Below are positions 11,060-58,715 of a stretch of DNA of 64,000 bases, piece by piece. A program made the position numbers and the translations under genes. Below the pieces are notes generated by a model that saw nothing but the letters and a program-made list of their open reading frames with translations, made no database searches and was not told where the DNA came from. Within the stretch, counting starts at the first letter, position 1, and the number at the start of each line of letters is the position of its first letter. This DNA is from Myxococcota bacterium (lineage in GTDB: Bacteria; Myxococcota_A; SURF-8), in NCBI GenBank assembly GCA_965140415.1, contig OZ223209.1:4352001-4416000 (forward strand), given 5' to 3'.

Positions 11060-11074
11060 GCAATGGAGGTTCCC

Positions 11075-11476: not shown

Positions 11477-11501
11477 GTCATATCATTTTTTCCCAAGGCC
11501 A

Positions 11502-21394: not shown

Positions 21395-23623
21395 CTAACG
21401 CCGTTTGTGCCAACGCCGGGATCGACTTCCAAGCCAACCACCTTTTTGCTGTTGCATCAATTCTCTAAGCTTCGTGGCGGCTCGCTCCTGGCTGATTTTC
21501 CCACTCAGCAAATCATTCGTGATGTTATCCGCCTGCACGGTTCGCCAGATGCTGGCCACGAAATCGAATAACATCTCGATTTGTCGCGCACCCCATAGCG
21601 CCGGAGACAAAGCCCGGTGCTCGTGTAAGCCTTTGGCCGCTTCCGAGTACACCCCATTCAAGCGATCATACAATTTTCGCAGAGCGGGCCGCAAAGGCTC
21701 CCAGGCGGCGCTGGTCTGATCCAGCAGACTTTCGATCTTCATCAGTGCGGCGTGGCTGTCCATCACACCATAGTCCTCAAACGACATCAACTGGATGATC
21801 GCATCCTGCCAGTCATCCGGATTCTCGGTATCAAAACGCCCCAGTTGGGTCAACACACGATCGTATGCCTGCCAACGATACACAATCTCCAGACCCGGTC
21901 CTTTGATGTTCTGCATTCCCATGATTTTAGCATGATAGCCCGGCGGCACCTGACCCGCGATAAAGTGAATCAGCGGATCGCCCTTGATGGCGGAATCTCT
22001 TAGAACGACGACACTGCGTAAAACCTGCTCGACAAGGCGCTTACGATACTGGCGATTCAACTGTTCGATAGCGCCATTGGAAGCGCCTTTCTCTTCGAAT
22101 AGCTGTTGCAAGTCCCTGGCGATTGAATCCATCACCAGATGTCTGGCGGCGGTTTCGGCAAGAAACGGAAGGCTTGCGGAACCGACTGAAAATCGGAATT
22201 CCTTGTCCTGCAACAAAATGGACTCTACTTCCTGTAGCGAATGCCCCTTGATCTTTCTATGCTGCGCTTCACACCAGTTTTCCCACTGCTCTTCGCTCCA
22301 CTTACCGATGCGGTCGCTTTCGGGTAGTTGCTCAAACATCATCCGAATCGCAGTCAGAGCATCGGAATCCAGCCGCATGGCCGTGCATATCATTTCCAAA
22401 CGTTTTTCAGCCCGTGGCCGTTCCCGCTCGGGATCGTTCTTGAATTCCGTAATGTCAATGAGCGCCCACTTTCCGTAGCGCAGTTTCAACTCGTTATTGA
22501 TAAACCCACGCATACCGCGAACGTTCGATCCGACCACGATGTAACGATGGGCGAACACATCTTCAACGAGAATGCGGGCAAACACCTGAGACCGGCTGAT
22601 GCGATCGGCACGGTTATTGATCAAAGCCACCGCCCAACGATTTAGATCCCCTTCCTGCCCAATGCGTTCGAAACCGGTTCGTCTCCAATTGTTCATGAAA
22701 CCGGCGCGTTCGTTGGCCGACATGCCATTAACGAACTGCAACCAGCGCCCGGAAACTTCGGCCTGCGGAAATACGCGCAGCACTCCTATTTCCGGCACGA
22801 CCCGTTCGGTCATTTCCACCAGTGCCTGCTCGCGATCGATTCCCAACTCCTCCGCCAATCTCAACACCAATGCCACGTTGGCGGGATGTTCCTCGTAAGG
22901 AAAGCGCTGCATCATCATGCGTGGCACCAATAAAGGATCGCGTTCATTGACCACCATCAACTCGCTATCCATACGCCGCGCCTCTTCCTTTAACAACGGA
23001 AGCATCTGCACTTCGGTCGTCAGCACTTTTCCCTTTTTCGGAATGAAGTGCGAGATCACCTGGGCGACATCGAAACCGCTTGGACCTTGAATATCCTCGT
23101 GGTCGGGATAGGCATTGGTGATGGTGGTGTAATCATCGCGCATCCACTGGCGCTGGAGAATTTCGACATAACGTTGGTTTAATGCCATGCACTCCCACAA
23201 AAACACCTGGGAATTGCTCTTTGCCGCCAAAGACAACAGCTTTTCCTGTTCCCAAATGGAAGCCTTGTCGTAAGGTCGGAAGATGTAAAGCTCCAAAGGA
23301 TCGCGTCCGGGCAGCGAACGAATGAACATGGCCGAGGAACCGGTGGTCTTGGCGACTACATGGCTATCCAGACTCGCGAAAAGCGCAGCTTTCAATCGCT
23401 CGGTGCCGCTTTTTCCCCGCGTTCCCCAACCACCGATCACCAATGGTACTTTTGCCCGACTTCTGTAAATCCTCTGAAATGCAAAGGAATGCCGAGCAAG
23501 AAAATAAAGTGCCACGAGTAACGTAAAGACCATCAAGCTGAAAATAAGATTACCGGTGGGCGACAGGAAGTAACTCAAATAGGGACGAATGGCCAGTTCC
23601 AAGCTGGTGTATAGATCTTTCAC
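21395..23623 (-). CDS. pgsB: Poly-gamma-glutamate synthase PgsB/CapB-like Mur-family ligase (enlarged)
   Basis: N-terminal TM; GTRGKS P-loop, AKTTG, WECMAL, TITNAYPDHEDIQG, FVNGMSANE, NNRADRISRS, GMQNIKGPG match CapB motifs in order; GTG start with GGAGGA RBS. Confidence 0.85.
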   Translation of the reverse strand: MKDLYTSLELAIRPYLSYFLSPTGNLIFSLMVFTLLVALYFLARHSFAFQRIYRSRAKVPLVIGGWGTRGKSGTERLKAALFASLDSHVVAKTTGSSAMFIRSLPGRDPLELYIFRPYDKASIWEQEKLLSLAAKSNSQVFLWECMALNQRYVEILQRQWMRDDYTTITNAYPDHEDIQGPSGFDVAQVISHFIPKKGKVLTTEVQMLPLLKEEARRMDSELMVVNERDPLLVPRMMMQRFPYEEHPANVALVLRLAEELGIDREQALVEMTERVVPEIGVLRVFPQAEVSGRWLQFVNGMSANERAGFMNNWRRTGFERIGQEGDLNRWAVALINNRADRISRSQVFARILVEDVFAHRYIVVGSNVRGMRGFINNELKLRYGKWALIDITEFKNDPERERPRAEKRLEMICTAMRLDSDALTAIRMMFEQLPESDRIGKWSEEQWENWCEAQHRKIKGHSLQEVESILLQDKEFRFSVGSASLPFLAETAARHLVMDSIARDLQQLFEEKGASNGAIEQLNRQYRKRLVEQVLRSVVVLRDSAIKGDPLIHFIAGQVPPGYHAKIMGMQNIKGPGLEIVYRWQAYDRVLTQLGRFDTENPDDWQDAIIQLMSFEDYGVMDSHAALMKIESLLDQTSAAWEPLRPALRKLYDRLNGVYSEAAKGLHEHRALSPALWGARQIEMLFDFVASIWRTVQADNITNDLLSGKISQERAATKLRELMQQQKGGWLGSRSRRWHKRR

Positions 23624-25689
23624 GATTGTTCCTCCAGTTCAAAGAACGAGCGAACATCAGGCAGATCCAAATCGACCTCGACTCCAAACAACTCGTAACG
23701 ATAGGGTTCAAATGAAATGCTGAAACCGAGCCGACTGCGTAGCGCCTCGATATAATCGATTCGCTTGGGTCGTTCAAGCTGCTGCATGGCATCATAGCGT
23801 TTGCGATTATACCATTCGTAATCAAAGTTCAATCGCTGCCTGGCGCGCAAACGCGAAAAGACTCCCTTGGGTTGTTGCACCTTTGTAATGCCGCAAGAAC
23901 TATAAAGGGAAACCTCCTTGGAGGCTTCGAGGCAATCGTCTGGTAACGGCAGATAGCGCCCCCATCCTCCCATTCGTTCCACCAATACGCGCTCGCCGGG
24001 AATGGTGGTCGGGTTGACTTCCGCCAGCCGTTCCGGGTGAGCCCGATGCGCAAAGCCATAAACCCGTCCGCGCGTATGCACGGTGTCGGAACGCATGTTG
24101 GGTCGCAGATGGCGAAACTCGTGCAATAATCTCCAAAGTTTGCGCCGAAAGCGCTCGCCTCGCTGCACTTTCAGCTTCCCATTTTTCACCGTGGCATACA
24201 AACCGGCGTCTGTTCTGGTCAAGCTGGCCATGATCCGCACCGCCTCGACGGCAGAGACTCCCTCTGGCAGCGCAACTTGAAATCGCTTTCCCCAATCCGT
24301 CTTTTCAGCCAAAGAGAATATCCGGTCCCGCAAATCTGTAAGAACGGGATCGATCCCGATTCGAATTTCTTCCAGTAACCCGGCAATCCGTTCCGTCTCT
24401 CCCGCTTCCTCACGAGCAACCAGGCGTTTGACCAAAGCCTGAACGAGTTTTACTTTTACCGCCTCGCTGTTTTCACCCTCCAAATCAAGAACCAGCCGCG
24501 CACATTCCTGCTGTGCAATCATGCGCACGACATCATTGGTGTCGCGACTCGCCCACCATCCCAAATAAGCAACCGCTTCATTCGCCTGACTATCGCCGGC
24601 GTTGATTTGGCGCAACAGGCGAGAAATCGTCTCTGCCAGGCGCGCGCGAATCGTGTACACCGAATCCGTCCTGGCGTTTTCCGCCTCGGCGATTTGCAGC
24701 AAGATTTCCAACCCGCCAATCGCCGTAAGCCGATCGCAGGCTTCAACACAAGCCAGTCTGGTATATTCGCTCGCATCGGGACGATCGGCCAACTCGGTCA
24801 ATTCCTTCAAGACCTGCTTTATCGGAACATCCGAATCCGCTAATGCGTGCACCGCATGGGCGCGCAGCAGGTAGCGGTCTCCCGATTCATCACCATCGCG
24901 CAATATGGGTAGCAGGTGCGTAAGAACGGCCTCTGTCCCCAGTCTTCCCATCAGATCGACCAGAGCAACTCGCACCCAGCGATCTTCTTCGACATTATTC
25001 AATAGCGACAGCAGCTCCTCGCCGTGTCGACTGTATATGCGCTGCTGCAACTCCGGCAACAGGTCAAGTATGGCCAGTATCACTCTCACCGCCGCCCTGC
25101 GAGCCTGTGCCTGACCTTCCCTGTTCAGGTAGTCGATCAGCGATGCGATGGTATTCTGGGCCAGTTCGCTGCCTGAAGGCGAATGAAGCGAATCGACATT
25201 CGCATCGATGGGCCGATATAAGCCTTCCAAAGCTTCCAGCGCCACGATCTGGCGCACCCACAAGGCCCAGCGTCCGATGGTCAGGCGTTCTTCCATCGCT
25301 TCCCAGTCTTCACTGGGAGCACTTTTCTTCCACTTGTCTCCCCACTCCGGCCACAGGTCCGGGCGCTTTCGAATCGTGTCTTCCAGAATGCTGCGACGTT
25401 CTTCTTCATCGGTCGCACGATAATACAACCCACGCCAGCGACGGATATTCTCGTATAATTCCTCTTCTGCCCCATGCCACTGCACCAGCAGACGAAGCAG
25501 CGTCACGTGCAACGCCCGTGCGACCTCCTGCGGTTCCTTTTTGCGCACACCCGCAGGAATCGACAACGTCACGGAAAGATCCTGCGCAACCTGTTCCACC
25601 GCCTCCGGGTTCAAACGCGCAGTGATGGGCCGAATCAGGCGGACCAGTTCCACACTCCAATCGATTTTGCCTCGTGCTTCGGCTACCAT
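23620..25689 (-). CDS. HEAT/ARM-repeat protein
   Basis: Helical repeats (ARRAAVR, WVRVALV, LLRAHAV, YTRLAC, VVRMIA); overlaps both neighbours. Confidence 0.75.
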   Translation of the reverse strand: MVAEARGKIDWSVELVRLIRPITARLNPEAVEQVAQDLSVTLSIPAGVRKKEPQEVARALHVTLLRLLVQWHGAEEELYENIRRWRGLYYRATDEEERRSILEDTIRKRPDLWPEWGDKWKKSAPSEDWEAMEERLTIGRWALWVRQIVALEALEGLYRPIDANVDSLHSPSGSELAQNTIASLIDYLNREGQAQARRAAVRVILAILDLLPELQQRIYSRHGEELLSLLNNVEEDRWVRVALVDLMGRLGTEAVLTHLLPILRDGDESGDRYLLRAHAVHALADSDVPIKQVLKELTELADRPDASEYTRLACVEACDRLTAIGGLEILLQIAEAENARTDSVYTIRARLAETISRLLRQINAGDSQANEAVAYLGWWASRDTNDVVRMIAQQECARLVLDLEGENSEAVKVKLVQALVKRLVAREEAGETERIAGLLEEIRIGIDPVLTDLRDRIFSLAEKTDWGKRFQVALPEGVSAVEAVRIMASLTRTDAGLYATVKNGKLKVQRGERFRRKLWRLLHEFRHLRPNMRSDTVHTRGRVYGFAHRAHPERLAEVNPTTIPGERVLVERMGGWGRYLPLPDDCLEASKEVSLYSSCGITKVQQPKGVFSRLRARQRLNFDYEWYNRKRYDAMQQLERPKRIDYIEALRSRLGFSISFEPYRYELFGVEVDLDLPDVRSFFELEEQS

Positions 25690-28600
25690 TCACTCACCCA
25701 TTCTCGATGCGGATCGATTTGCCAGGCTGCGAAATCTTCGCCCGGCAAGGAGTCGCGCAGGCCCCTGTCCGTTGAAAATGCAAAACCAAGACCGGCAAAA
25801 AATCCGTGCTGGAGGCGATCCGGGTAGAAGTCGTACGAAATCTCCGGGGCAACACGCAACCAGCTAAGCGGCCAGAAATTGTATCGTCCTTCCAGATGCA
25901 CCTGATGCCGGTACAACCAGCCATCCCGATCGGCGTCGTCTGCAAGCGGTTGGAACCCATAATAGATCTCGCCCTGGAATCTGCCGAAAGCGATCTGATC
26001 GCCAATTCGCAACGCGAACCGGTCAGGCGAGTAGAAATCGTCGTTGGTGATGTAGCGCATGGACATAAACAGGCTGTTGTTAATCCAAGGCTGCCATGCC
26101 ATACGCAACCCGGCAAACAATCCGTAAGGATGATCCTTTCCATAGGGAGAGTAGACGTCCTCATCCATGTAATCCGGCACTTTGCGTAAGGTCCAGTCGT
26201 TCAAGCCCTGCCACTTCCAGAACGCACCGATTTCCGGTGTTAAAGAGAAACTGGAATTCGGCTCGAATCTGCGCCCGATACTGCCACTGAGCCGATTACC
26301 GCCAGCCAATCCCGTTTGAGTGTCCTGAACGGCGAACCGATTGGACAAGCTTATCCGCAATTCCGGTCCAGGAGTGATCCAGTATAGCTTTCCTTCAAGC
26401 AGGCTGGTCGGAGCCTCGTCTAACCGGAAGCGGCCCTCCGCCGCCATCGCCAGCCACAGATCCGCCCCTTCGACCCGACGTTTATACCCGAGCCGCGTGG
26501 ACAAATAGTGGTCGACCTCTTTAATCGGGCCGGTTTCATCGCGCAGTTCTCTACGTACACCCACTAAAAACGACAGCGTCCCCATACCGCTGTCATAGGA
26601 CACCGGATAGTCTTCCATCAAACGTAATGGAGTGGTAGTGGAAACCGGCATTGAGGCGGTGGCGGTTTCCGTTTTCTTGGACTTCCGCCGATCTTCCAAA
26701 CGAACTCCCTCGCCGCGATCCGCTTCCCGGGTATACAGTCGCAGTAACGCCGTAGACTGATTGGTCGGCCCAATCACGATGTGATAGTTTTCCGCATCTT
26801 CCAACCATAGTTGACGGCTGCCATCGGACATGATCTGGAACGGCTCTACCGAATTTCCGTTCGTCCGAACCTGCACATCCACGGCAGAAGCGACGCCCGA
26901 TCTTTCAAAGGAATCGACACGCAGAATCGTCGGACCCAACAAATGGAAACTCACCGGGCGCGCCGCGCTTGCACGCACTAACGATGTCTGCACGACCGGC
27001 AATAACCAGTACACATCGCCATCTTGTTGCGTCGGAATCCCTGCGACCTGCCGATCCACACCGAAACGAACGGTCGTTGCCGGAGTGTACAGATGCGAAG
27101 CAGGCCAGTGGTACAACTCAAGAATGTAATCCCCCGCTGTGGCCAAAGGTCTTTTCAACCTGCGCACTTCGCCTCGTTTAAGGTCCACGGTTTCAACGGA
27201 GACGCCATTCAACAACATCTCTATACGACAGGCTACAGGCGCATCGTGTACGGGCGGCGAAAACTGATAGCAACCGACCTCCATTACGGCGTTGGCGGAC
27301 CCATCCACCGGAAGATGCACGGAGATCGAAGAACCGGGTAACAGCATTTCCGCTGCGCCAACCTCTTCTTTCATACCCAATATCGCTTTCAGTAACGCCA
27401 GGTAGTTTTCATGCGCCTGGGGCAACAGGCGGGCTGCCTCTTCGCTGATGCGTTCCACCCCATCCATGCGCTCCACTCCGGCAAGCGGTTCCCAGTGGGT
27501 CGCCGACCAGAGCAGCGGGAACCACAGCCCCAAAGCGTCCCAATGCGTCTGCTCGTTCCAGCGTGCGGCACGTTGCAACATCGCCCGGAAAGACGATGGA
27601 ACGGGTTCGCCTGCTCCCACTTTTTGTGCGGCTGTTTGTATCCACCACGGTAAACAACCGGTATGCGACACACCTTTGAGCACCAAATCACTACAGGTGA
27701 GCATAGACTGCTCGTTACGCCCCTTTTCTACCTGCTTGACAAAACGTCGCCGCAGTTTCTCGCTCGCCGGACCGTGTCTCTCACCAACATCCACAGTAGC
27801 CGATAACGGAAGCGGTTTCTCGAAAGTAGCCGTACGATTGCAATAGCCGCGATCCAGCCGCTCCCTCAATCCAAGCATGCGCTGCTCGTTTTCCTGAGTT
27901 TTTGACACTTCGGCAGCGGCTCGCATCAGGTCTTCGCGAGCAAATTTCGTGTGCCCCAACCGACACAGGCAATCCGAGCGTTGCAACAACCATTCACCAC
28001 GTTGCTCGTTTTTTTCCGCTGGGAGGGCAGCCAGTTTCTCGCTTAGCGACTGTACCTCTTTCAACCGGCGGAAATAGTCAGACGTGCTTTCCTGCTTCGC
28101 AGTAGCAGTCACCTCCGGTTCGTTAACTCCCTCCAGTGGCCGGGGCATACGCAGCAGCATGCGAACGTGCCAGGCCTGCCGTGCAGCAGGGTCCATCCGC
28201 ACGCGAATGCGCTCGGAGCAATCCCCGGTCTGGAATGAAATGGAAACGGGTTGTGAAACGAAGGCATTGGGGCGGTTTGCCAATGGATAGCGGATACCGC
28301 TCGAACCGGAATTAACCTGTAATTGTACTTCTCTTGCTCCCATGCCCACGGTAAAGGTCACGGCCTCATCGGCGGAAGCAGTCGTGGGCGGGAATGCCTG
28401 GAACAGGGCATAACCACTGTATCCTTCCCTGGGAGCCTCGAAAACTACATCCTCTCCCGGCTTCACTTCCCAGGCCTGCACCAGCTTGGCTCCAGCCACT
28501 TGATCGCTTTGCCGTTCGATCATGCGCACCTGCATCCAGACATCCACGTCGTTGCGAGTCATCACGCGGACGGGCACGGAATCCGCCACCAGCACTCGAT

Positions 28601-33082: not shown

Positions 33083-36000
33083 GGCAGCACCTCCCCGTTG
33101 CAGACTCCGGCACCCTGGCCATACCGCAGCGTGTTGAGTTCCAACTCACCGGTGGTATTGATTTCCGCATCGCTTGCAGCAGGGCTTTCCATACGAACGA
33201 CACAGCGCGGACCTTGATTGTCCTGCACGAGTAACAAGAAATATTTTCCGCTGCACGAATCACGCAACAGGCTCGGGAGCACGTCTCCCTTCCCTGCCTT
33301 TTCGGATATCGCTTTTAACAGCGAGACGTTTCGCAAGCGGGAAAACTCGTTTGCCAATTCCAGTGTTTCTTTCAATGTCGCGGAAGCCGGTTGTTCAGCG
33401 GGAATTTTTAAAACGTCTTCCATGCTGCTGGAAACCAGCGGATAACCGAGATCGCGAATGGTGGCGACCCAGCGAGCGATTTGCTCGCCGCCTGGCTGCT
33501 GCATTCTCACCTCCGCATTCACCCACAGTACCGCCGCCGATTGCGGGTCCAGCGATGCGGAATAGCGCAGTTGCAGATCATCCACGCCCTTCAATCCAAG
33601 CTGGTATTTGTCTCCCGCATACAACTGCCATTTCAAGCCCTCCAGATCCAGATCGTGCAGCAGATCGTTCATCATCATCGAACGCGGCGAGCGCTCCGGC
33701 AGATCCATGGCAGCGGAAATCAACACGTCTTCATCAATCGGTCTGACTTTCGAAATGCCGCGAACGATCAGCACCCATGGCGTAGTCGCGCCCGGCTTAA
33801 CGGGATAGGCTGCCCGATGCGCGGCATGGAATGGATTGACGACATTCTCCAACCTCGTGATGTCCGCCAGCCCGTCGCGTCGCGCCTGTAAATCCGCCGT
33901 AGCGACATACAAAGCCGACGCATTCAAGCGTCCATACAGATCCATGGCCATCTCGGCCACTCCGGTTTCCAGTAGCGGTCTGGGAACTTCGATGGTCCAG
34001 CGAGACGATCCCGCGCGGAACAGGTAGGCTCCCCAATGTCTCTCGCCATGCGCTTCATGCAACAGCACTTCGAATCCCTTGCGCCCTTCCGAGCGAAAGA
34101 GGGACAGCTCATAACCCAATACCGAAGCACGCTGCTTGATCAAGGTCAAGCTCAGCCGCATATCGGTCTCACTGCGCTTATAGTTCAGTAGTTCACGCCG
34201 CAGCGGTCGAATGATCGCGTTTTCCAAGTAGGTCATCTCAATCGGCATCGGCGTTCGATACGCTTCCGAGTATGGCGGTGCAATCGCCTCTTCGTCGGAG
34301 TCGAGCAACTCGCGCAACGTCGCCAGGCCGGATTGCGACTGCTCCTGCTCGCTCGGCTCGCTTGTCGGCCATAGGTTAAGCAATTCCTGTTCGTTCAACA
34401 CCAGTTCCATAAACTCGATATCCGCGCGGTTTCTGGCCGGATTCTTTTTCTCGTACGGATCGAAACGAATGCTGTAGGTTGGAAAACGATTTTTCAACTC
34501 CGTAAGCGGCATGGCCTCCGGAACACGCTGCTGCACGTAGGCGACCGTCGGTCCCGGACTCGTGCGAATCTGCACGACGGCCTGTTTTGCGAGCAGTTCG
34601 TGTGCAACGGAAAATGGCGATCCCACCGCATGCAGCACCGACCGTTCACGAGGACGGAAAGAGCGCCAGCCGTTTACGAGCAACCCGCAGGCATGCACGG
34701 AAGGGAATATCGCCAGCGCGGCGTCCAGAGCCGCCGCTTCTTCATAAGGATACGGCACTTCAAGCAACACCCCGTCTTTGCAGCCGGGAACGAACACAAC
34801 GGTGCCCCAGCCTTGCAATTGATGCAGCGGACTGTCCAGCGGCTCGCGCAATACGATCAAGGTGGTTTCCGGATCGTCCGGAAGTTGCGTTCGAACAACT
34901 TCCAGGTGCAGGCGCTTCAAGTCTTCGGTAAAGCTCTCATCCAGAAATTGGTTTCCGCGTACGATATTCTTGTTCAATACCAGGTTACGCACTCCGGCCA
35001 ATACTCGCTGATAGCGCAGTCTGGCCGCAGCCGAGGTGGGACGGAAATCCTCCGGCAATACTGCAAAGGTCTGCACGGAGGCCAGATGTAGTTGCAGCGG
35101 GTCCGCATCGAGCAATTGCGATTCGGCATGCGCAACCGAGGACTCGGCCACACCTTCAGCCACAAAGAGCTTATCCACCTGAAACAGAGCCAAGCCGACG
35201 ATGTTTCCGAAAATGAACGCCAGAAACGAAGTCAATAAAGTCGGACCGATCACCAGCGACCAACTGCGGCGCTCCCAGATATTCAACGCAACCAGACTGG
35301 GCAGCAAATAACCGAAGCCGAACAGATCGGATACGCGAAAACCGGGAGCAGTTTCGGTAAAATAGTACCCGAGCATGAACTTCAATCCCAGCCCTACCGT
35401 AAAAATCAGAATCAGTCGCCTGGAACCTTCCAGATTGCTGCGCATGAAAATCGGCAGCGAGGCGATCATCCAGGCGATTCCAGCCACCAAAGAAGCTTCG
35501 ACCAGCGTGGCTGCAACCTTTATCGGCATGTACCAGGCCACGGCCAACAGGGCCGGAATCATGATGCCGTTGAAATCCCAGCCCAGTTTCAAATTGAAAC
35601 GAGCCGCCAGCATCATACCGACGATCAGTGTAATGTAAATTTTTGGAGAGCTGGCAAAGTCCAGCGCCAGATCCTGGAAAGTCAATTCGAAGTTTGCAAT
35701 GGAAAAATTCGTATTGGGAATCAGCAGATATACCAGAATCAAATAGGTCAAAACGACCGGCGTTCCCACCTGTATCGCTCCACGCACGAATCCTGGCTTC
35801 CACATCGCGTGCGCCGTCAGCGGAACGATGACCAGGCCGATTCCGTATAGATGGCTCACCGCCTCCAGCGGCAGACCGAAAAGCTGCACGGTCCAGTCCG
35901 AAAGCGACTGGAAAAACCACGCCTCATAAAACAGGCGCACCAATAGACTGATAATGAAAAAGGCCAGAAAACGATCGCGACCGAACAAGCTGTGCCACCA

Positions 36001-36252
36001 ACCGAACCGGCTCAATAGTTCCGATAAGGTGTAAACCACCACATAGGTGGTTACGATTTCCATGCAGATCACCAAACCGGCTTGCGGCGCAATGACAAAA
36101 ACCGAAGCCAGGTATCCGCTAACCACCAGACCGGCAAAACTCCAGCCCAGCGACTCGGTGAAGAAGGCATGGATCAGCAACCCGATATAAATCGGAATCA
36201 GAATCGAGTTATCCAGCCCCCGAGAGGGGAAAATGGCAAGAACGTCTTCCAC
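33079..36252 (-). CDS. pgsC: PgsC/CapC-domain membrane protein (tandem CapC repeats plus ~700-aa soluble C-terminus)
   Basis: IGLLIHAFFTESLGWSFAGLVVSGYLA / GRDRF / GIGLVIVPLTA resembles CapC; a second copy follows (LKLGWDFNGIMIPALLA / GSRRL / GFGYLLPSLVA). Confidence 0.8.
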   Translation of the reverse strand: MEDVLAIFPSRGLDNSILIPIYIGLLIHAFFTESLGWSFAGLVVSGYLASVFVIAPQAGLVICMEIVTTYVVVYTLSELLSRFGWWHSLFGRDRFLAFFIISLLVRLFYEAWFFQSLSDWTVQLFGLPLEAVSHLYGIGLVIVPLTAHAMWKPGFVRGAIQVGTPVVLTYLILVYLLIPNTNFSIANFELTFQDLALDFASSPKIYITLIVGMMLAARFNLKLGWDFNGIMIPALLAVAWYMPIKVAATLVEASLVAGIAWMIASLPIFMRSNLEGSRRLILIFTVGLGLKFMLGYYFTETAPGFRVSDLFGFGYLLPSLVALNIWERRSWSLVIGPTLLTSFLAFIFGNIVGLALFQVDKLFVAEGVAESSVAHAESQLLDADPLQLHLASVQTFAVLPEDFRPTSAAARLRYQRVLAGVRNLVLNKNIVRGNQFLDESFTEDLKRLHLEVVRTQLPDDPETTLIVLREPLDSPLHQLQGWGTVVFVPGCKDGVLLEVPYPYEEAAALDAALAIFPSVHACGLLVNGWRSFRPRERSVLHAVGSPFSVAHELLAKQAVVQIRTSPGPTVAYVQQRVPEAMPLTELKNRFPTYSIRFDPYEKKNPARNRADIEFMELVLNEQELLNLWPTSEPSEQEQSQSGLATLRELLDSDEEAIAPPYSEAYRTPMPIEMTYLENAIIRPLRRELLNYKRSETDMRLSLTLIKQRASVLGYELSLFRSEGRKGFEVLLHEAHGERHWGAYLFRAGSSRWTIEVPRPLLETGVAEMAMDLYGRLNASALYVATADLQARRDGLADITRLENVVNPFHAAHRAAYPVKPGATTPWVLIVRGISKVRPIDEDVLISAAMDLPERSPRSMMMNDLLHDLDLEGLKWQLYAGDKYQLGLKGVDDLQLRYSASLDPQSAAVLWVNAEVRMQQPGGEQIARWVATIRDLGYPLVSSSMEDVLKIPAEQPASATLKETLELANEFSRLRNVSLLKAISEKAGKGDVLPSLLRDSCSGKYFLLLVQDNQGPRCVVRMESPAASDAEINTTGELELNTLRYGQGAGVCNGEVLP

Positions 36253-36258
36253 CCGCGC

Positions 36259-38199
36259 CTACTCCCCTTCTTCCTTTACGGCTTCCATTTCAGCAGATGA
36301 ATCCGCACGCTGCCCGGAATCCAGTTGCGCCAGCAACAAGAATCCCTCCGGCAAAGGCACGCCGCGCTCGCCGACGCGATACAGCAAACGAACCACAAAA
36401 CGATAGCCATGAGAATGAAACACGTTTTCGGCTCGCTGCTGATGCAGGCGGAACATCCAATCCCCCTGTGCACCATCGGGAACGGCTTTGAGCTTGTGCA
36501 GGAAATCCGACAGCGAATTGAAATCCTCGCGCCTGAAACCACACCAGTCCAGAATATCCTTCATGGGCCGGTTGTAATGCAGCAGGCGGCCAAACATATC
36601 GGTAAAGGCAACACCCTCATTCAGTCCGTCCAGTACCGAATGCAGAATCACTTTCTCTTCTACCAAATTGCCGAAAATCCGGTCGATGTCGTCCAGTTGT
36701 TTTTGCATGCGATCGCCGGATAGACGCTCGCGCATCGAACTCATTTCCTTGCGAACCTGATTAGCGCGGCTGTAATACAGCAGCCTCGCCACCTGCTGGC
36801 CGATGGTCATCAGTAATGGCGCGCGCTCGTTTTTCGTTGTTGCATCGAAACTGATGACCCAGAATCCGACAAACTGAGACGGGTAGAACAACGGCACCAG
36901 ATACGTCACCAGGGATTCATCCTGCATGTAGCTCTCGGTCTTTTCCACATACGAGCGTGTAATGGCCGAGGCATAGGGCGCTCGCGCAATATCGCGCCGC
37001 CGTTCCTGGATCGCACTCTCATCCATGCCGTAGAACCGCTTGAATTGAACCTTTCCATCCTGAGAACCGGGCAATGCCAGCGCCATATTTTCCGGCTGCA
37101 AATGAACCGAGGCAAATCCGATCAGGCGCTGCCAGATATCATCCAGCTTGATTTCGCGCGTGTCGGTGGATACCGGGCGCAACGTCAACTCCCAGGTAGA
37201 CGTATTGGCAATCTCACGAGTTCGCGACTGTAACCATCTGGATTTACGTTCGAAGGAAACCAGCAGCGTCAATCCCACCCCTAATGCCATACCGGAAATC
37301 GGCAACAGGATATTCAAGAATAACAAGGCGCAGATGGAACCCACTAGCAAAATGCTCGACCACAGAATTCCCAGCAGCAGGTTGAAGCGCATCGTCGTGC
37401 GCAAAAGAAACAACCAGAACACCAGCACCACAAGCGATAAAATCAATAAAGTCTGCCACACCAGCAGTTTTACAATGCCATTGCCTTCCAATAGCGTAAT
37501 CAAGGCGTTGGCATGGAATTCCGCTTCACTCATCGGATGCGTCAGATCGGAAACGGGCACCGCGACGAAGCGAGTCAGATCGGGCAGATCCAGCCCGATC
37601 ACCACAAAGCGATCCTTTAAAAATTCTTCCGGCGCCGCGCCCTGCACGACATCCGCAACGGACAGATTGGAAATGCTGTTGACGGGTCCGGCGAAATTCA
37701 CGTAAACGCGTTTTTTATCCACCGGTCTTTTAACGACGTCATACTCCCAGGCATATCCTGAGAATCGTCGGTCCGGATAGCGGTCGTAAAGATGGCGCAC
37801 GATGCCGTCTTTATCCGGCAAGGTCACCTGAATCGGAATATCATTTTCATTTTTGCCTGTGCCAACATTCGGCAGTAGCAGCCAGGGTCGATGCTCGTTT
37901 GAAGGATCGGCCAGCACCATCGATGCACTCGAAGCCAAAATCACCCGTTTCGGTCCCATACTGCCGATGGCATCGAAGACCTGATCCGCCGCTTTTCTGC
38001 TCCAGGGAAGCGGTCCAACTTTTTGCACGGTAGCCGCATCGATGCGCAAAAACACGACATCATCGGAAACGGTACGCGCACCACGCAAATACATGACGGT
38101 ATCGCCGAAACGTAAATCGACGGACTGACCGAACCCGGCAGCGTAATACAACAGCACCGCAACCAACACTGCTACAAGTAGTAAAGCAGTTCTAAACAT
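36259..38199 (-). CDS. CHASE2 sensor membrane protein with GAF-like and PAS-like cytoplasmic part, no kinase/cyclase output
   Basis: VVFLRIDAAT...GPLPWSR, D.DGIVR, VNF.GP, KDRFVVIG, E.HANALITLL, then 3 TMs; LDGLNEGVAFTD.FG.LL.YN PAS start. Start ATG 38199 (RBS GGAAGG) or TTG 38301. Confidence 0.85.
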   Translation of the reverse strand: MFRTALLLVAVLVAVLLYYAAGFGQSVDLRFGDTVMYLRGARTVSDDVVFLRIDAATVQKVGPLPWSRKAADQVFDAIGSMGPKRVILASSASMVLADPSNEHRPWLLLPNVGTGKNENDIPIQVTLPDKDGIVRHLYDRYPDRRFSGYAWEYDVVKRPVDKKRVYVNFAGPVNSISNLSVADVVQGAAPEEFLKDRFVVIGLDLPDLTRFVAVPVSDLTHPMSEAEFHANALITLLEGNGIVKLLVWQTLLILSLVVLVFWLFLLRTTMRFNLLLGILWSSILLVGSICALLFLNILLPISGMALGVGLTLLVSFERKSRWLQSRTREIANTSTWELTLRPVSTDTREIKLDDIWQRLIGFASVHLQPENMALALPGSQDGKVQFKRFYGMDESAIQERRRDIARAPYASAITRSYVEKTESYMQDESLVTYLVPLFYPSQFVGFWVISFDATTKNERAPLLMTIGQQVARLLYYSRANQVRKEMSSMRERLSGDRMQKQLDDIDRIFGNLVEEKVILHSVLDGLNEGVAFTDMFGRLLHYNRPMKDILDWCGFRREDFNSLSDFLHKLKAVPDGAQGDWMFRLHQQRAENVFHSHGYRFVVRLLYRVGERGVPLPEGFLLLAQLDSGQRADSSAEMEAVKEEGE

Positions 38200-38301
38200 G
38201 ATCCTTCCAATCCAATCCCGGAAGAAGATAACGAAAAAAAATACTTTCCTTATACCTCTCCCGGCTCGACCATCACCCGCCGCTTTGGACGAAACCGACA
38301 A

Positions 38302-40029
38302 TCAAGGAATCAAATCCATCCACTCACTAAATACCGGCACCCCCCACCCACACGCGAAATCCCAACCGGGTGTGGTTTCTCCTGCAAAACCGGGGATGAT
38401 GGTTTCCGTAATATCGAAAAAAGTCGCCTGTAACGCTTCGTTTTCGTACAATGCCCGGTTCAACCAGCCGAGTTGCCCTTTTTCGCTGCGAGCCTGATTC
38501 AAACATCCGACCCAGCCTGCCAGCATCGGAGCCGCCAGCGACGTTCCCCCGGTAGGGAACCACTCCTCCTGGTGAACGACAAAGATGGAGGTGCTCTCCA
38601 ATGTCGGCGTACAATGCAACGCCAGATCGGGAATGGCGCGACGATCCGACTCGGGATCGACGGCAAACTGCCAATAGGGTTTGGCAAACAAGGCACTGCG
38701 TCCACGTCCGCCGAAGAGCGGATCGAGTTCCGCTTTGCGCCCGCCCTGCTCGTCCAGTTGCAACAGACTCGCTCCCACAGCCGTTACCCAGGGAGCGTTG
38801 GCCGGATTATCCACGTTGGTGGAATCGCCGCTGGCGGCCAAAAAGGTAATCCCCTGTGCCGCCGCGATTCGTCCTTCCGTATTCTGAAACTGCTGCAACT
38901 CCCAGGCGGTAATGACTTCCTGGTGAGAAAACGAGTAGGAAATAATGTTGCATCGTCCACGACCGATGGCCTCGTTGATGGCCCATGTCAACGAGAAATC
39001 CGTGTTGTCGTTGGCCAGATACACCAGAATATCGGAATCCGGAGCGGTAATACCGACCATCTGCACATCGACCGTGGTTTCGTTGGAAAAGCGTCTCGGA
39101 GGAACATCTGTATAGATGTACTCCGTCTCTCCGCTTCGCTCCGTTCCCATCAAACGCCAATAGCTGGTCACATCCGCCCGGCGCGCCTCCCAACCACCAA
39201 TCACGCAGATCTGCTGCCCGCGCCCGGTGAAGTTTCCTTCGTACAGGGTGTCCATGTCGTATACATTTCCGATTTGCTCCGGCGTGATCCCCAGTTCCGG
39301 GAACGGCTCGTCAATCGGCTCTGTGGTGTCGTCGATCGGATCGATTAGTTCAGGCTGATCCCGAATCGCCAGCACGGCATCGATGCTCCCTTCCAACCAG
39401 CTCGGAACGGTGAATGGCTTCTCTACTGCAAAATCCTTGCGCTCCACGCGCACGATGCGATGAACTTCCGTATCGAAAGCCCGTTCGACATCGGCAATGG
39501 TTCCTTTAACCAATAATAGCAAGCGATTGGTGGCCAGCTGATCCAGTTTCAAACCATTACGATCCAGATAAGCGATCAGTTCCGCAATTTTCTTCGGATC
39601 GGGAGCATGCATGGCGGTGAAGCCGCTGGCAGAGAAAAACTGCAAGTACTCCGGCAACTCCGGCGTATAAACCAGTTCGAGCCAGTCCTGCAAATCCCCC
39701 GAGCGTTGCAACGGTAAAGACATCAGCACGCGCACCTCATCCTCGCTCGTGGCCTTTCCCTTATCGATGACATCCTGCGTAAAACGCCATAAGCCGTCGC
39801 GCACTTCAATGCGTACGTCCCCATCATCGGGTAGATCATCGGCTGTAAGCTGCGGAATTTCCTCCAGTTGCACCTCCGCCGGTTCACTTATGCGTTCTCC
39901 CGTTTCAGGATTCACGATAATCCGCGCGGCAGGGCTGCTCGGATAAGGAACCGGTGCATCGTCCTTGCAAGCCAGGACCATCATAGCCGCTATCAGCACG
40001 AAAATAATTATCTCTATGCAGCGCCCCAT
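38302..40029 (-). CDS. S53 (sedolisin/kumamolisin) family peptidase lipoprotein
   Basis: Lipobox VLAC; pro-domain; ETTVD (E..D), AASGDS, GGTSLAAP, GWDFACGWG. Confidence 0.92.
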   Translation of the reverse strand: MGRCIEIIIFVLIAAMMVLACKDDAPVPYPSSPAARIIVNPETGERISEPAEVQLEEIPQLTADDLPDDGDVRIEVRDGLWRFTQDVIDKGKATSEDEVRVLMSLPLQRSGDLQDWLELVYTPELPEYLQFFSASGFTAMHAPDPKKIAELIAYLDRNGLKLDQLATNRLLLLVKGTIADVERAFDTEVHRIVRVERKDFAVEKPFTVPSWLEGSIDAVLAIRDQPELIDPIDDTTEPIDEPFPELGITPEQIGNVYDMDTLYEGNFTGRGQQICVIGGWEARRADVTSYWRLMGTERSGETEYIYTDVPPRRFSNETTVDVQMVGITAPDSDILVYLANDNTDFSLTWAINEAIGRGRCNIISYSFSHQEVITAWELQQFQNTEGRIAAAQGITFLAASGDSTNVDNPANAPWVTAVGASLLQLDEQGGRKAELDPLFGGRGRSALFAKPYWQFAVDPESDRRAIPDLALHCTPTLESTSIFVVHQEEWFPTGGTSLAAPMLAGWVGCLNQARSEKGQLGWLNRALYENEALQATFFDITETIIPGFAGETTPGWDFACGWGVPVFSEWMDLIP

Positions 40030-40077
40030 AAAGCTACCTGACTCCTTCAACAATCACCCGGATTCAGATCCGAGTTC

Positions 40078-40854
40078 CTAATATTCACAGCAGCGAAAAC
40101 CGATCCGTGGTCCGGAAAGGTCGCGATAGGTATCCGCTCCGAAATCGTAATCGCAGCGAAGCACATCCTCCACATTGGCGAAACTACCGCCGCGTATCCG
40201 ACAAGCACCCAACTCCCCGGCGCCGGTACTGCAAACCCCAGTCCATTCGATAACGTTGCCGCTCATATCCCACAGATGCTCTTTGCCTCCTTCGCAGGAG
40301 GTGAACGCGCCAACCGGAGAAGGCGCTTCCACACCCATCGAAAAGCCATTGCAGGCGAATGGATCGAATTCGTCCCCGTAAGGGTAGTTTAAACGTCGAT
40401 TGTTCGAGCAGGCGAGATACCACATATCTTCTTCCGGCTCTTCCCATTCTCCCTTGCATAGTTCTTTACCGGCCCACTGGCAATACGCCTGGGCATCGCA
40501 CCAGTCCACACAGGTTGCCGGACGATCCCCGCGTTCTCCCTCCGGCCAGTCGCAAGTCGGCTCGAAGGTTTCTTTCCAGGAACAATGCTCACTGAGCGGA
40601 TCGATCTGGGGAGAGCTTTGCAGAAAGGCACGATACTGATCGCGTGTCACTTCCGTCGCATCGATGCTGAAAAACCCGAAGTCGATCATGCGCCCGATAT
40701 CTTCCGACGGAGGGTAATAGTAATCCTCCGGTTCATCCGGACAACCGGCCATACCGAAAGTCAGAACCAACACGGCAACGCCAATCAAGACGCGCCAACA
40801 CCAACTCTTGATTCTGCCGATTCCGCAATCCACTTTTACACGTGCGCTATCCAC
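40078..40854 (-). CDS. FGE-sulfatase (SUMF1/EgtB/PvdO) domain lipoprotein
   Basis: Lipobox MAGC; FSIDATEVT, P..CVDWCDA.AYC.WAGK, DMSGNVIEW, RGGSF, GFRCC. Start uncertain (GTG 40854). Confidence 0.88.
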   Translation of the reverse strand: MDSARVKVDCGIGRIKSWCWRVLIGVAVLVLTFGMAGCPDEPEDYYYPPSEDIGRMIDFGFFSIDATEVTRDQYRAFLQSSPQIDPLSEHCSWKETFEPTCDWPEGERGDRPATCVDWCDAQAYCQWAGKELCKGEWEEPEEDMWYLACSNNRRLNYPYGDEFDPFACNGFSMGVEAPSPVGAFTSCEGGKEHLWDMSGNVIEWTGVCSTGAGELGACRIRGGSFANVEDVLRCDYDFGADTYRDLSGPRIGFRCCEY

Positions 40855-41349
40855 ACGTCGCCCCTTTTGAAAATGGCCTACCCGTAAACGGGTCTGACTC
40901 AAAGTCAAGGCTAACTTCTCAGAATGATTTTCCAATCCTAATCCACCACTACTCCCTAGCACCGGTAAGGCAAAAAGTCAAGTTATTTCTTATATTTCTA
41001 TAACTTCTACAATAAGTTTCCGTTCTCGAATCCTGCCTACACCCACAACCTTCCGGAAATTGATTTTTACCTGCATTTACTACGACTTTCGGTCGGTGAA
41101 ACCGATGCACCCCGAAAATTGCACATGATATCCATTCTTAATTATCGGCCATTATACCAGATTCATTACCTAATTTTATAGGAAGGAGGGTCGGTTTTGC
41201 CAACTGTGACCAGGGAAACACAACGAAAGAAGGGTTTTTTCACGAATTCTACCATCAGCTAGTACTCCACGTTACAAATCAGATAAGCCAATGGCCACAT
41301 CGCGCAGGCCGCGCTTTTTTGAACCACTACTTAAAAACAGGAGGGATAA

Positions 41350-42045: not shown

Positions 42046-42362
42046 CGATATCCTCCTCGGTAAACACTTGAAATTACAAGCAAGCGTATTCGAGTTGCCT
42101 GGTTACGGACACGTCTTCCCGTCTATTTCAACAGGTAAAAAACCAAACTCGGAAACGCGCTGCCAAATTTGTACTAAATCTTGGAATCGGATCATAACAT
42201 GCACGAAGGGATTAATCAGCAAAAAAATATCGCCATTCCATTCAATTAAGGAAAAAGCCCGCAATTTCAGAAAATCACGAATTCTTTCTCTTACTTTTCG
42301 GAGTCCATCGAATAGCACTTTGAAATCCCAAATTCTAAATAAAGACATTTTTGTGAAAAAGG

Positions 42363-42391
42363 TTGCAATGACGACCCGGCTTAGATATTGT
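42363..42391 (+). promoter_or_regulatory. Putative sigma70 promoter
   Basis: TTGCAA-17bp-TATTGT upstream of ATG 42491. Confidence 0.45.
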
Positions 42392-42490
42392 CGTACGGAC
42401 GATTTTTCGTTGGGATTTCAAAAAATCCAAACTATAAAGCATGGAATTTTATTGCTTTCGACCACATTTTTGGGAAGGAGAGTTGTCGTG

Positions 42491-55515: not shown

Positions 55516-55526
55516 CTGTGCCCCCC

Positions 55527-56654: not shown

Positions 56655-56691
56655 GCTCCAAACTCCTTGCTCTGGTTGGTTCTTTTCGAAA

Positions 56692-58697: not shown

Positions 58698-58715
58698 CTT
58701 ACCACCTGGTGACCA

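Follow-up and report, generated by a model that had tools for sequence, protein, structure and literature searches.

A candidate trans-envelope apparatus for a polyglutamate-type polyamide, centered on a long CapB-type ligase and a giant CapC, in a Myxococcota genome

Bacillus and some few further organisms are known to form capsules and slime of poly-gamma-glutamate (PGA). The Bacillus system, PgsBCA(E) or, in B. anthracis, CapBCADE, encodes a P-loop ligase with an N-terminal hydrophobic anchor alongside a protein of the PgsC/CapC type, which is a small, all-membrane protein of about 150 amino acids (aa). Gram-negative bacteria possess the synthase-dependent exopolysaccharide systems Bcs (cellulose), Pga (poly-N-acetylglucosamine [PNAG]), Pel, and alginate. 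Here, we describe an operon that resembles both kinds of system. It lies in a 64,000-nucleotide (nt) stretch of DNA from a Myxococcota bacterium (GenBank assembly GCA_965140415.1, contig OZ223209.1, positions 4,352,001 to 4,416,000 of the forward strand), which is referred to throughout as the window, and it encodes a long CapB-type amide ligase, a HEAT-repeat protein, a giant CapC, two large envelope proteins of 867 and 1605 aa, a CHASE2 sensor, and two accessory proteins. An original prediction, made from the DNA alone, proposed that these genes may synthesize and export a polyglutamate-like polymer.

Pairs of capB and capC are already known from diderms. Fusobacterium nucleatum is reportedly a polyglutamate producer, and Francisella is said to carry capBCA loci. 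The available passages of the CapsuleFinder paper name CapB and CapC as the mandatory components of its PGA model and place such systems "in most phyla," with an abundance in Planctomycetes (PMC5542703). Likewise, excerpts of an earlier survey count PgsB and PgsC pairs in 250 bacterial species from 58 genera (PMC4497714), and the available text of a preprint on Cloacimonadota, whose locus is CapB-CapC-PgsF, calls a three-gene organization typical of Gram-negative producers (10.1101/2025.11.11.687785). These compact Gram-negative loci share with the window the pairing of CapB and CapC in a diderm. Unlike the window operon, however, they are short, with two or three genes and with no outer-membrane component named in the portions of the accounts at hand; these same portions mention no giant CapC, no families like the 867- and 1605-aa proteins, no CHASE2 pair, and no hydrolase folds. 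What is available of a 2026 review describes the Bacillus complex only (PMC13721041). In the full-text literature, subscription journals and supplementary tables aside, we found no paper connecting PgsB or PgsC to CHASE2, Myxococcus, a giant CapC, or a component of the outer membrane, and the name "PgsF," which appears in one preprint, led to nothing relevant among the matches listed. The statement in the original prediction that no characterized system with the same architecture was known therefore agrees with the full text searched, in which we found the cassette as a whole to be undescribed. The system is of a known kind through its ligase and CapC, while its periplasmic and outer-membrane parts depart from every described system.

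In its layout, the operon is like the synthase-dependent exopolysaccharide systems, which combine an inner-membrane polymerase and conduit, an anchored periplasmic protein, an operon-encoded periplasmic hydrolase of the polymer, an outer-membrane barrel with a large periplasmic domain, and a sensor of their own. The parallel with Pel, PNAG, and cellulose systems that had been drawn at the outset (synthase, periplasmic proteins, barrel, and sensor) holds as a match of layout only. In contrast to Bcs, Pga, Pel, and alginate, the polymerase is an amide ligase of the Mur-ligase type and not a glycosyltransferase, and Pfam found no glycosyltransferase, PilZ, GGDEF, or other cyclic di-GMP module in the eight proteins or in 24 relatives. 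The barrel also differs, being 14 stranded and OmpG-like with a TPR character that is not significant. Compared with the Bacillus system, the window ligase is twice as long and has a HEAT-repeat partner or fusion, CapC has 1057 aa and consists of two repeats plus a tail of about 700 aa, the gene order is CapC...CapB rather than BCA, and there are six further conserved genes, including that for the outer-membrane barrel.

The operon comprises eight co-oriented open reading frames (ORFs) of the minus strand at positions 21395-40962 in the ORF listing of the window (Table 1). Four junctions, which had been quoted before as 33079/33082, 30479/30500, 25683/25689, and 23620/23623, are exact, and the gaps at the remaining ones measure 0 to 24 nt. 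Because all eight ORFs overlap or are separated by so little, the layout is that of a single operon. The domain labels given originally (FGE, S53, CHASE2, CapC, HEAT, and CapB) were borne out by Pfam and NCBIfam scans; the Pfam scan took in 42 window ORFs (8 + 20 + 14), namely, those of at least 150 aa that were judged plausible. The first gene is present as predicted, though not to the same extent: its longest ORF starts at 40962, and the start proposed earlier, 40854, is a GTG within that ORF. Translation probably begins at an internal position, and this GTG is one example. We judge the genes to be real because each of the six core proteins has numerous homologs. Pattern scans for promoters and terminators at both operon ends did no better than on shuffled sequences, and the flanking ORFs at 20513-21214 and 41350-42045 were left outside the operon because neither has a homolog in any of the 80 related loci described below. 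A TetR-OEP-HlyD-AcrB (RND-type) efflux operon at 52393-58733 includes an outer-membrane factor, and the organism therefore has two membranes.

Table 1. Features of the operon in the window, with examples of the receiver gene in related loci
Feature	Residues	Nucleotides	Strand	Basis
FGE-sulfatase-domain lipoprotein (294 aa), first operon gene		40078-40962	minus	PF03781
S53 (sedolisin-type) serine peptidase (583 aa)		38302-40053	minus	Pro-kuma_activ + Peptidase_S8
CHASE2 sensor (680 aa)		36259-38301	minus	PF05226
CHASE2 sensor, periplasmic CHASE2 domain	45-298	37408-38169	minus	PF05226
Giant CapC (1057 aa)		33079-36252	minus	PF14102
CapC, membrane part, two PgsC/CapC repeats	1-367	35152-36252	minus	PF14102
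CapC, C-terminal soluble part	368-1057	33079-35151	minus	AlphaFold2 + profile
CapC, PghP/PghL-like domain 1	~402-630	34363-35049	minus	fold + profile
CapC, PghP/PghL-like domain 2	~645-920	33493-34320	minus	fold + profile
867-aa protein, unnamed family		30479-33082	minus	no Pfam/NCBIfam match
1605-aa barrel protein		25683-30500	minus	predicted fold; no Pfam/NCBIfam match
1605-aa protein, signal peptide	~1-39	30384-30500	minus	N terminus ...LLLCSAMPLSA/QTEN
1605-aa protein, helical stretch	~794-883	27852-28121	minus	model residues 339-428
1605-aa protein, beta-sandwich just before barrel	~1051-1260	26721-27350	minus	model
1605-aa protein, C-terminal 14-strand barrel	~1305-1585	25746-26588	minus	model residues 850-1130
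HEAT-repeat protein (689 aa)		23620-25689	minus	HEAT_2
Long-form CapB/PgsB-type amide ligase (742 aa)		21395-23623	minus	TIGR04012
CapB, hydrophobic anchor	25-43	23495-23551	minus	hydropathy
CapB, PgsB-like catalytic part	46-376	22496-23488	minus	TIGR04012
CapB, family-specific C-terminal extension (~365 aa)	377-742	21398-22495	minus	conservation
Receiver gene examples in relatives		L003:3224-3613, L004:4335-4718, L005:745-1119		

The ligase is the clearest link to polyglutamate synthesis. At E ≤ 0.01, its sole match among NCBIfam models is the PgsB model TIGR04012 (E = 2.2e-64, 217.6 bits; model positions 15-330 of 380). In a tblastn search of plasmids, its residues 31-365 are 29.8% identical to pXO2 CapB (E = 4e-31), and all of the best 15 matches listed, out of 94, fall within genes annotated capB or pgsB. 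Judged from these matches, and not from a tree, the ligase stands nearer in sequence to PgsB/CapB than to other amide ligases, including MurC-F, FolC, and CphA, the alternative affiliation that had been considered at the outset. Its P-loop, GWGTRGKSG (G64-G73), is invariant in all 30 aligned long-form sequences. The compact PgsB proteins of pXO2 and other plasmids align only to residues 27-369; they lack both the extension of about 365 aa and the HEAT partner. Within this extension, P560, G562, G569, Q571-N-I-K-G575, G577, L578, and R583 are invariant across the 30 sequences, which also share a conserved Q-K-G-G-W-L near the C-terminal end, and Pfam matched the extension to no family even at E ≤ 5. 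The long CapB has 542 homologs of 408 to 1299 aa. The sources of long-CapB and giant-CapC homologs include myxobacterial genera (e.g., Corallococcus, Pyxidicoccus, Sorangium, and Pendulispora) as well as Methylococcaceae, Crenothrix, Nitrosomonas, Legionella yabuuchiae, and Planctomycetes.

The HEAT-repeat protein encoded next to the ligase (HEAT_2, E = 8.2e-08 in Pfam) has no signal peptide, transmembrane (TM) segment, or other hydrophobic segment by hydropathy and is predicted to be cytoplasmic. In all 11 of the long (963 to 1299 aa) CapB homologs examined, a region that matches residues ~434-665 of the HEAT protein precedes a CapB part (e.g., P0016, P0020, P0032, P0041, P0052, P0064, and P0099), and in 8 of the 11 a single alignment spans nearly the whole of CapB. 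Such natural fusions argue that the HEAT protein and CapB work together. Cofolding of CapB residues 44-742 with HEAT residues 430-689 gave a score of 0.00 and a mark of 0.32, which speaks neither for nor against binding. A second HEAT/PBS-lyase repeat protein, of 722 aa and with one TM segment (HEAT_2, E = 1.4e-29), is encoded on the opposite strand at 42026-44194, approximately 1 kb upstream of the operon start and beyond the 231-aa ORF at 41350-42045; blastp against the ORFs of the 80 related loci found nothing like it at E ≤ 1e-5.

CapC matches PF14102 in two stretches (E = 1.1e-37, 129.5 bits against a gathering score of 27), and the internal duplication of the PgsC unit is visible in the sequence itself, with GWSFAGLVVSGYLA at residues 36-49 and GWDFNGIMIPALLA at 224-237. 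The unusual size is a family trait, as the 320 homologs of the giant CapC range from 581 to 1850 aa. An AlphaFold2 model (mean predicted local distance difference test [pLDDT] score, 81.4) was computed on an alignment, A1, of the window CapC with 34 of the 120 homologs listed (35 sequences). In this model, residues 1-367 are all helical, and the two PghP/PghL-like domains of the soluble part are followed at the C-terminal end by a small alpha/beta domain. Basic residues cluster on alternate loops, and the last helix, with R328 and R329 behind it, runs on into an acidic stretch. On the basis of this charge pattern, together with the export of free paralogs of the tail domains (see below), we place the tail in the periplasm, where it probably resides.

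The neighborhood of CapC is widely conserved. A scan of genome contigs with A1 yielded at least 600 pattern-matched stretches, at least 535 of which encode a CapC relative, some of these possibly compact CapC proteins. Our sample consists of the best 80 of the at least 535 relatives, with 10-kb flanks; a phage locus, L081, was excluded throughout. These 80 loci carry nine phylum-level labels, most of them assigned to metagenome-assembled genomes (MAGs) by depositors. Labels within Pseudomonadota cover gamma-, beta-, and zetaproteobacteria, Magnetococcales, and "Rickettsiales" MAGs, and the other labels are Myxococcota, Desulfobacterota, Campylobacterota, Planctomycetota, Verrucomicrobiota, Acidobacteriota, Spirochaetaceae, and Poribacteria. 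The nearest relative among the matches listed is a Myxococcales MAG (locus L001), at 60% identity and with the same FGE-S53-CHASE2-CapC order; the labels of the closest relatives are Myxococcales and Deltaproteobacteria. The usual order is a CHASE2 protein (about 900 aa), a gene for about 126 aa, the giant CapC, the 867-like protein, a gene for about 300 aa, the 1605-like protein, the HEAT protein, and CapB.

Plain BLAST detected relatives of the CHASE2 protein in 50 of the 80 loci, of the 1605-aa protein in 34, of the 867-aa protein in 18, of HEAT in 11, of S53 in 10, of CapB in 6, and of FGE in 2. Counts made with two-round profiles, with the loci long enough to show a given gene as the denominator, are as follows. 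A gene for an 867-like protein directly follows CapC in 69/69 loci (at least 1 kb downstream), a hydrolase-like gene or domain is present in 51/55, a 1605-like gene is present in 51/53 (at least 5 kb downstream), and HEAT and/or CapB is present in 41/46 (at least 9.5 kb downstream), the last two being counted jointly because fused proteins cross-contaminated both profiles. Upstream, a CHASE2 protein adjoins CapC in 45/57 loci (at least 3 kb), whereas S53 (8/50) and FGE (2/50) are rare (at least 4 kb). Four of the five loci without HEAT or CapB have a 1605-like gene that reaches near the locus end, and 9 of the 12 without CHASE2 are Corallococcus-type loci with S53 instead. CHASE2, 867-like, 1605-like, and HEAT/CapB genes all occur in 29 of the 40 loci whose context is complete upstream and downstream. 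Co-occurrence in other genomes, which the original prediction had made a test of its proposal, is therefore seen as neighbors recurring in one order over 80 loci and nine phylum-level labels. Of the gene set proposed, CapC, the 867- and 1605-aa proteins, HEAT, CapB, and CHASE2 recur; the usual cassette adds a receiver and a free hydrolase, and the eight-gene unit as first drawn shrinks to a conserved core that excludes FGE and S53.

The gene of about 300 aa that lies between the 867-like and 1605-like genes in most loci connects the cassette to polyglutamate hydrolases. Among 28 such ORFs (250 to 370 aa), 26 form one BLAST family; the remaining pair comes from Corallococcus and has no matches outside itself. 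A profile built on the full set of 28 matches the window CapC at residues 411-516 (independent E value [i-E], 4.9e-5) and 662-817 (i-E, 1.6e-8) and matches nothing else in the six-frame translation of the window or in the other seven operon proteins. The window CapC model, compared with the PDB by Foldseek, has as its top match the polyglutamate hydrolase of phage PM1 (21dc; E = 1.5e-3, prob 1.00, TMt 0.51, 175 columns), and the list also holds PghL-PGA (5onj_A, TMt 0.52) and PghP (3a9l_A), with prob 1.00 and TMt 0.48 to 0.52. In BFVD, the top match is the polyglutamate hydrolase of phage Bobb (E = 4.9e-3, TMt 0.45). Both tail domains of CapC, as modeled, thus have the fold of PghP/PghL (MEROPS M86, PF05908), which are zinc-dependent endo-hydrolases of poly-gamma-glutamate from Bacillus phages and prophages. 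The proteins described here differ from these enzymes in that the sequence similarity is at or below detection and in an N terminus that is longer by about 100 residues. No PF05908 match was obtained with the CapC tail (residues 402-1057) even at E ≤ 5, tblastn of a stand-alone protein against phage genomes gave nothing at E ≤ 10, and the family profile matched no PDB chain by sequence. As for the 25 of the 26 family members that make up alignment A2, a single protein hits PF05908 (Gamma_PGA_hydro) at E = 0.0044, its 17 bits lying below the gathering score of 22. Another hits FGase (E = 0.12), and the other 23 hit neither of these families.

The available parts of a structural study of PghL give its zinc ligands as H41, E46, and H102 and its carboxypeptidase-type glutamate as E165, while R171 anchors the substrate carboxylate, with an R171S substitution abolishing cleavage (PMC6506827). 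In A2 (numbering of L080), H120, D124, R150, D154, Q181, H183, G184, H256, E258, and R264 are invariant. H120, D124, H183, E258, and R264 follow the same order as the five PghL residues, with similar spacing, and the distance from E to R is six residues in both, so that the stand-alone proteins share with PghL the motif set H...D/E, H, E, R. Weak local alignments to the phage PM1 enzyme land on the APH and E-x-S...R motifs. Signal-peptide-like N termini occur in 21/25. Since motif order and spacing match, rather than because of any significant alignment, we read the stand-alone proteins as probable active zinc hydrolases of the PghP type.

The CapC domains differ at these positions. The first zinc histidine position of domain 1 (Y501 in the window) is R in 15, A in 10, Y in 5, and H in 3 of the 35 sequences of A1, and that of domain 2 (R758) is R in 16, H in 5, S in 4, A in 3, and V in 3. 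The acidic ligand is retained (E505 in 34/35 and E762 in 33/35). The remaining equivalences were drawn by motif position and not from a scored alignment: the histidine of Q-x-H-G corresponds to R563 in domain 1 and to R831 in domain 2 (34/35 each), and the H-x-E-x-S...R motif reads L-W-L-S...R in domain 2, where W910 (35/35) stands at the catalytic glutamate position and R916 (34/35) at the arginine. Because the zinc histidine positions are replaced and the acidic residue and arginines are kept, the CapC domains look like noncatalytic derivatives that retain carboxylate-binding arginines. Overall, the link to PghP-type enzymes draws on four partly independent results, i.e., the profile, the Foldseek top matches, the Pfam matches, and the motif order.

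The proteins of 867 and 1605 aa have no match in Pfam or NCBIfam and none among PDB chains by sequence; nor do the four large operon proteins as a group match any PDB chain by sequence, and profiles of the 867 and 1605 families found nothing useful among PDB chains. The 867-aa protein has a hydrophobic segment at residues 4-22 by hydropathy, which suggests an N-terminal membrane anchor or signal with the remainder exported. A word index returned one homolog besides itself, and an Atlas search returned only unnamed clusters. A profile of the family recovered 1454 cluster representatives among 1.84 billion at E ≤ 0.001, most of them about 820 to 830 aa long; 1258 remain when the threshold is tightened to E ≤ 1e-10, and 925 when it is set to E ≤ 1e-30. 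In some relatives, an 867-like protein is fused to a C-terminal hydrolase-like domain, making about 1150 to 1230 aa (L011:8588-12085, L016:13131-16631, P0319, P0328, and P0392). The L011 fusion replaces the separate hydrolase gene, leaving no gap between the 867-like and 1605-like ORFs, while in L016 two further ORFs still lie between them. An hhalign comparison of the 867 and 1605 families gave a probability of 94% (E = 1.3e-7) over 263 columns, which on the 1605 side fall within the exported N-terminal region; on this basis, the two periplasmic proteins have a module in common.

An AlphaFold2 model built on alignment A4, which joins residues 456-1605 of the 1605-aa protein with 33 relatives, has a mean pLDDT of 60.9. 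Its barrel segment is considerably better, at block pLDDT values of 72 to 97, most blocks being at 88 or above, and it consists of 14 strands of 11 to 15 residues. The beta-sandwich ahead of the barrel and the helical stretch are the other confidently modeled parts. Foldseek against the PDB aligned the model with OmpG chains (E = 4e-8 to 1.5e-7, prob 1.00, TMt 0.61 to 0.69), and further porins, ushers, and FhaC rank below them. A PNGase at the head of the list was rejected for its poor overlay (TMt 0.13). We are confident in predicting, from the modeled fold, that this is an outer-membrane beta-barrel protein. The TPR-barrel porin of the original prediction is thus retained for its barrel, and its TPR part is not significant: the helical stretch lies upstream of the barrel, Pfam found no TPR, and the family profile matches designed TPR proteins only at E = 0.19 to 0.72. 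Atlas look-alikes of the protein, the BcsC, PgaA, and YaiO barrels at 0.78 to 0.80, are leads only. Pfam searches at E ≤ 5 with the N-terminal part and the barrel of the 1605-aa protein, the C terminus of the HEAT protein, and the CapC tail returned noise.

The window CHASE2 protein (PF05226, E = 1.4e-23) has TM segments at residues 39-57, 279-297, and 317-335 and a weak PAS_8 match in its cytoplasmic part (E = 0.013), and Pfam detected no kinase module in it. Its relatives have about 900 aa, and HisKA or HATPase_c was found in 3 of the 7 scanned. The gene of about 126 aa between the CHASE2 kinase and CapC forms a BLAST cluster in 23 loci and encodes a single-domain receiver in all three cases scanned (PF00072, E = 1e-24 to 3e-26). 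An output-less receiver beside a polymer synthase suggests direct protein-protein control. The window has no receiver gene, as the 6-nt gap between CHASE2 and CapC leaves no room for one, and no free hydrolase gene, as the 867 and 1605 genes overlap. Together with L001, it carries S53 and FGE lipoproteins, while the receiver, the kinase module, and the free hydrolase are missing from it. The FGE protein (PF03781, E = 1.6e-26; weak PvdO and GldK/PorK matches lie far below cutoffs) has a lipobox in which a hydrophobic stretch is followed by ...FGMAGC, with Cys74 in long-ORF numbering, and keeps it with either start. The S53 protein has the architecture of that family (Pro-kuma_activ, E = 7.6e-19, plus Peptidase_S8, E = 2.8e-10), and its N-terminal hydrophobic segment ends in ...VLAC at Cys29, which makes it a probable lipoprotein. 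S53 homologs occur in 10/80 loci overall, from Corallococcus, Myxococcaceae, and L001. From their distribution, FGE and S53 are taken as lineage extras, with S53 confined to myxobacterial-type loci. A second, independent association of the FGE fold with the cassette is found in "Candidatus Electrothrix laxa," in which a 923-aa protein with an FGE-sulfatase-type region is encoded between CapC and the 867-like protein (L073:13781-16549).

We propose that the operon encodes a two-membrane apparatus that polymerizes glutamate or a close analog via gamma-amide bonds and exports the chain to the cell surface, a reading that we regard as probable, though by no means secure, on the strength of the family comparisons and modeled folds. 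On this proposal, the membrane-anchored, ATP-dependent CapB-type ligase would add residues at the cytoplasmic face together with the HEAT protein, and the doubled PgsC-type membrane domain of the giant CapC would be the conduit. The chain would then emerge into the periplasmic part of CapC, where the two PghP-like domains, which have lost the zinc histidines and kept the conserved acidic residue and arginines, could grip the polyanion and leave it uncut. The periplasm would be spanned by the anchored 867-aa protein together with the exported portion of the 1605-aa protein, which have a homologous domain in common, and the 14-strand C-terminal barrel of the latter would serve as the exit pore. 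Most relatives encode a secreted PghP-like protein that has every metal-binding and catalytic motif and may trim the polymer or clear stray chains, and a CHASE2 histidine kinase and single-domain receiver may control the system. The window lineage would have lost the hydrolase, the kinase module, and the receiver and would use S53 and FGE-fold lipoproteins instead. The analysis shows the structure of the genes, their family matches and folds, the conserved order, and the fusions, and from these we infer the identity of the polymer, the topology, the contacts, the export route, and the regulation; as a general picture, the trans-envelope polyamide machine of the original prediction is supported by the comparisons and the folds. 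The broader proposal, that such loci form an undescribed and widespread class of trans-envelope polyamide systems marked by a HEAT-partnered ligase, a doubled PgsC conduit with a gripping tandem pseudo-hydrolase tail, spanning proteins with a shared domain, a 14-strand exit barrel, and kinase-receiver gating, strikes us as evenly balanced.

Several results weigh against polyglutamate synthesis and export as the function. Both synthase proteins, in a further departure from the Bacillus system, score below the NCBIfam equivalog cutoffs, the ligase with 217.6 bits against 222.7 and CapC with 65.7 bits against 96.45 for TIGR04011, and the identity of the substrate is therefore not assured. In view of its near miss, we class the ligase among the relatives of the family rather than with its certified equivalogs. 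CapC is placed as a distant member of the PgsC/CapC family, given the missed cutoff and the lack of any capC match to its residues 1-370 by tblastn against plasmids, including pXO2, at E ≤ 1e-3. CapA (PGA_cap) and CapD (gamma-glutamyltranspeptidase), parts of the Bacillus system that the original prediction had also failed to recognize here, are absent from the 42 window ORFs scanned with Pfam, and so is a glutamate racemase; CapE is a small peptide, below the size limit of the scan. Regarding the hydrolase folds, no Foldseek match of CapC reaches E ≤ 0.001 in the PDB or BFVD (TMt 0.45 to 0.52), M17, M28, and M14 peptidases rank between and after the polyglutamate hydrolases in the PDB list, and N-formylglutamate amidohydrolases come close behind the phage Bobb enzyme in BFVD. 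For this reason, membership of the CapC tail in the PghP/PghL fold class is clear from the model, and its specific kinship to polyglutamate hydrolases is only suggested. PF05908 is missed by 24 of the 25 stand-alone proteins, and hhalign of their profile with the phage PM1 enzyme gave E = 0.068 and a probability of 0.8%. The location of the CapC tail was deduced from charge counts and by analogy with secreted paralogs. As for the 1605-aa protein, its barrel is like that of OmpG, a general porin, and unlike those of BcsC, PgaA, and AlgE, and the first 350 residues of its model are unreliable, so that the N-terminal 800 or so residues of the protein lie outside confident structure. Finally, 9 of the 11 HEAT-CapB fusions examined still carry, between their HEAT and CapB parts, the hydrophobic segment found at the N terminus of free CapB. 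If it spans the membrane, HEAT and ligase would sit on opposite sides; the puzzle is that the free HEAT protein has no export signal, yet the fusions carry this intervening segment.

The main rival to the polyglutamate reading accepts the same machine and gives it a different product, either a polymer of another kind with amide links or a lipid, protein, or glycan carrier bearing a short gamma-glutamyl modification, with the envelope proteins handling this conjugate in place of free polyglutamate; we consider this to be unlikely, though deserving of attention. The subcutoff PgsB and PgsC scores and the missing CapA and CapD just described fit it, as do the ligase extension and HEAT partner, which compact pXO2 and plasmid PgsB genes lack, and the PghP fold is common to N-formylglutamate amidohydrolases and other zinc peptidases. 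Against these stand the ligase, all of whose sequence-level matches are PgsB/CapB, and the first match in both structure libraries, which is a polyglutamate hydrolase. The carboxylate-anchoring arginine six residues after the glutamate, known from the available text on PghL (PMC6506827), is moreover invariant in the stand-alone proteins, and the same arginine appears by motif position in CapC domain 2 (R916, 34/35). A polymer could also be made but stay within the envelope, where this polyanion, in the periplasm or tethered to the outer membrane, would buffer ions or water, with the 1605-aa protein as its anchor rather than as an exit pore. The small 14-strand barrel resembling a general porin, the periplasmic location of most of the mass of the system, and the binding-type, noncatalytic hydrolase folds of CapC would all suit such a polymer. 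A pore of OmpG size could nevertheless pass a linear chain, and operons that combine a synthase, a periplasmic hydrolase, and a barrel with a large periplasmic domain serve export in the known polysaccharide cases, which leaves retention improbable.

Uptake and breakdown of environmental polyglutamate, with the barrel as importer, the hydrolase and the S53 peptidase as digestive enzymes, and CapC as a transporter, might be considered in view of the hydrolase-type folds and the peptidase within the operon, and the available text of one survey allows that PghP-like genes outside Bacillales may serve polyglutamate feeding (PMC4497714). It appears very improbable, for the most conserved protein of the set is an ATP-dependent ligase with an invariant P-loop, the hydrolase folds of CapC have lost their zinc histidines, and the window keeps ligase, CapC, and barrel without any catalytic-type copy of the hydrolase. 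Lastly, chance adjacency of unrelated genes can practically be dismissed, as the order recurs across nine phylum labels with the retention given above (69/69, 51/53, and 41/46) and two kinds of natural fusion, HEAT-CapB and 867-hydrolase, link the genes to one another.

How polyglutamate might be exported across two membranes has no described answer in the literature searched, and the cassette is a testable candidate for one. If polyglutamate synthesis and export is its function, environmental Gram-negatives would commonly form a matrix or capsule from polyglutamate-type polymers that has so far been overlooked, with carriers among myxobacteria, methanotrophs, sulfur oxidizers, iron oxidizers, cable bacteria, and planctomycetes, and polyglutamate-type material would be expected in the matrices of many uncultured environmental bacteria. 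Synthase-dependent secretion systems would gain a polyamide branch, two large unnamed protein families would gain names and functions, and the CapC tail would be an example of hydrolase folds reused for polymer binding. The loci would also be a source of new enzymes for making or shaping an industrially interesting polymer.

The rest of the window contains genes of other kinds. At its left edge, a CHAT-domain protein on the plus strand (1-1621; PF12770, E = 8.9e-55) is cut by the window border and followed by a TPR protein, and a 908-aa M14 zinc carboxypeptidase with a CarboxypepD_reg domain is encoded at 1649-4375 (plus), 17 kb from the operon. Tandem genes at 10049-12083 (plus) specify a membrane beta-barrel protein of the DUF5777 type and a membrane protein of the DUF2231 type. 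Beside the efflux operon, two adjacent transposases of the same kind (DUF4372 plus DDE_Tnp_1) occupy 59000-60202 and 60403-61581 on the plus strand. They are followed by a VTC-domain protein at 61832-62638 (minus; PF09359, E = 2.4e-37) and then by a second outer-membrane efflux gene at 62659-63933.

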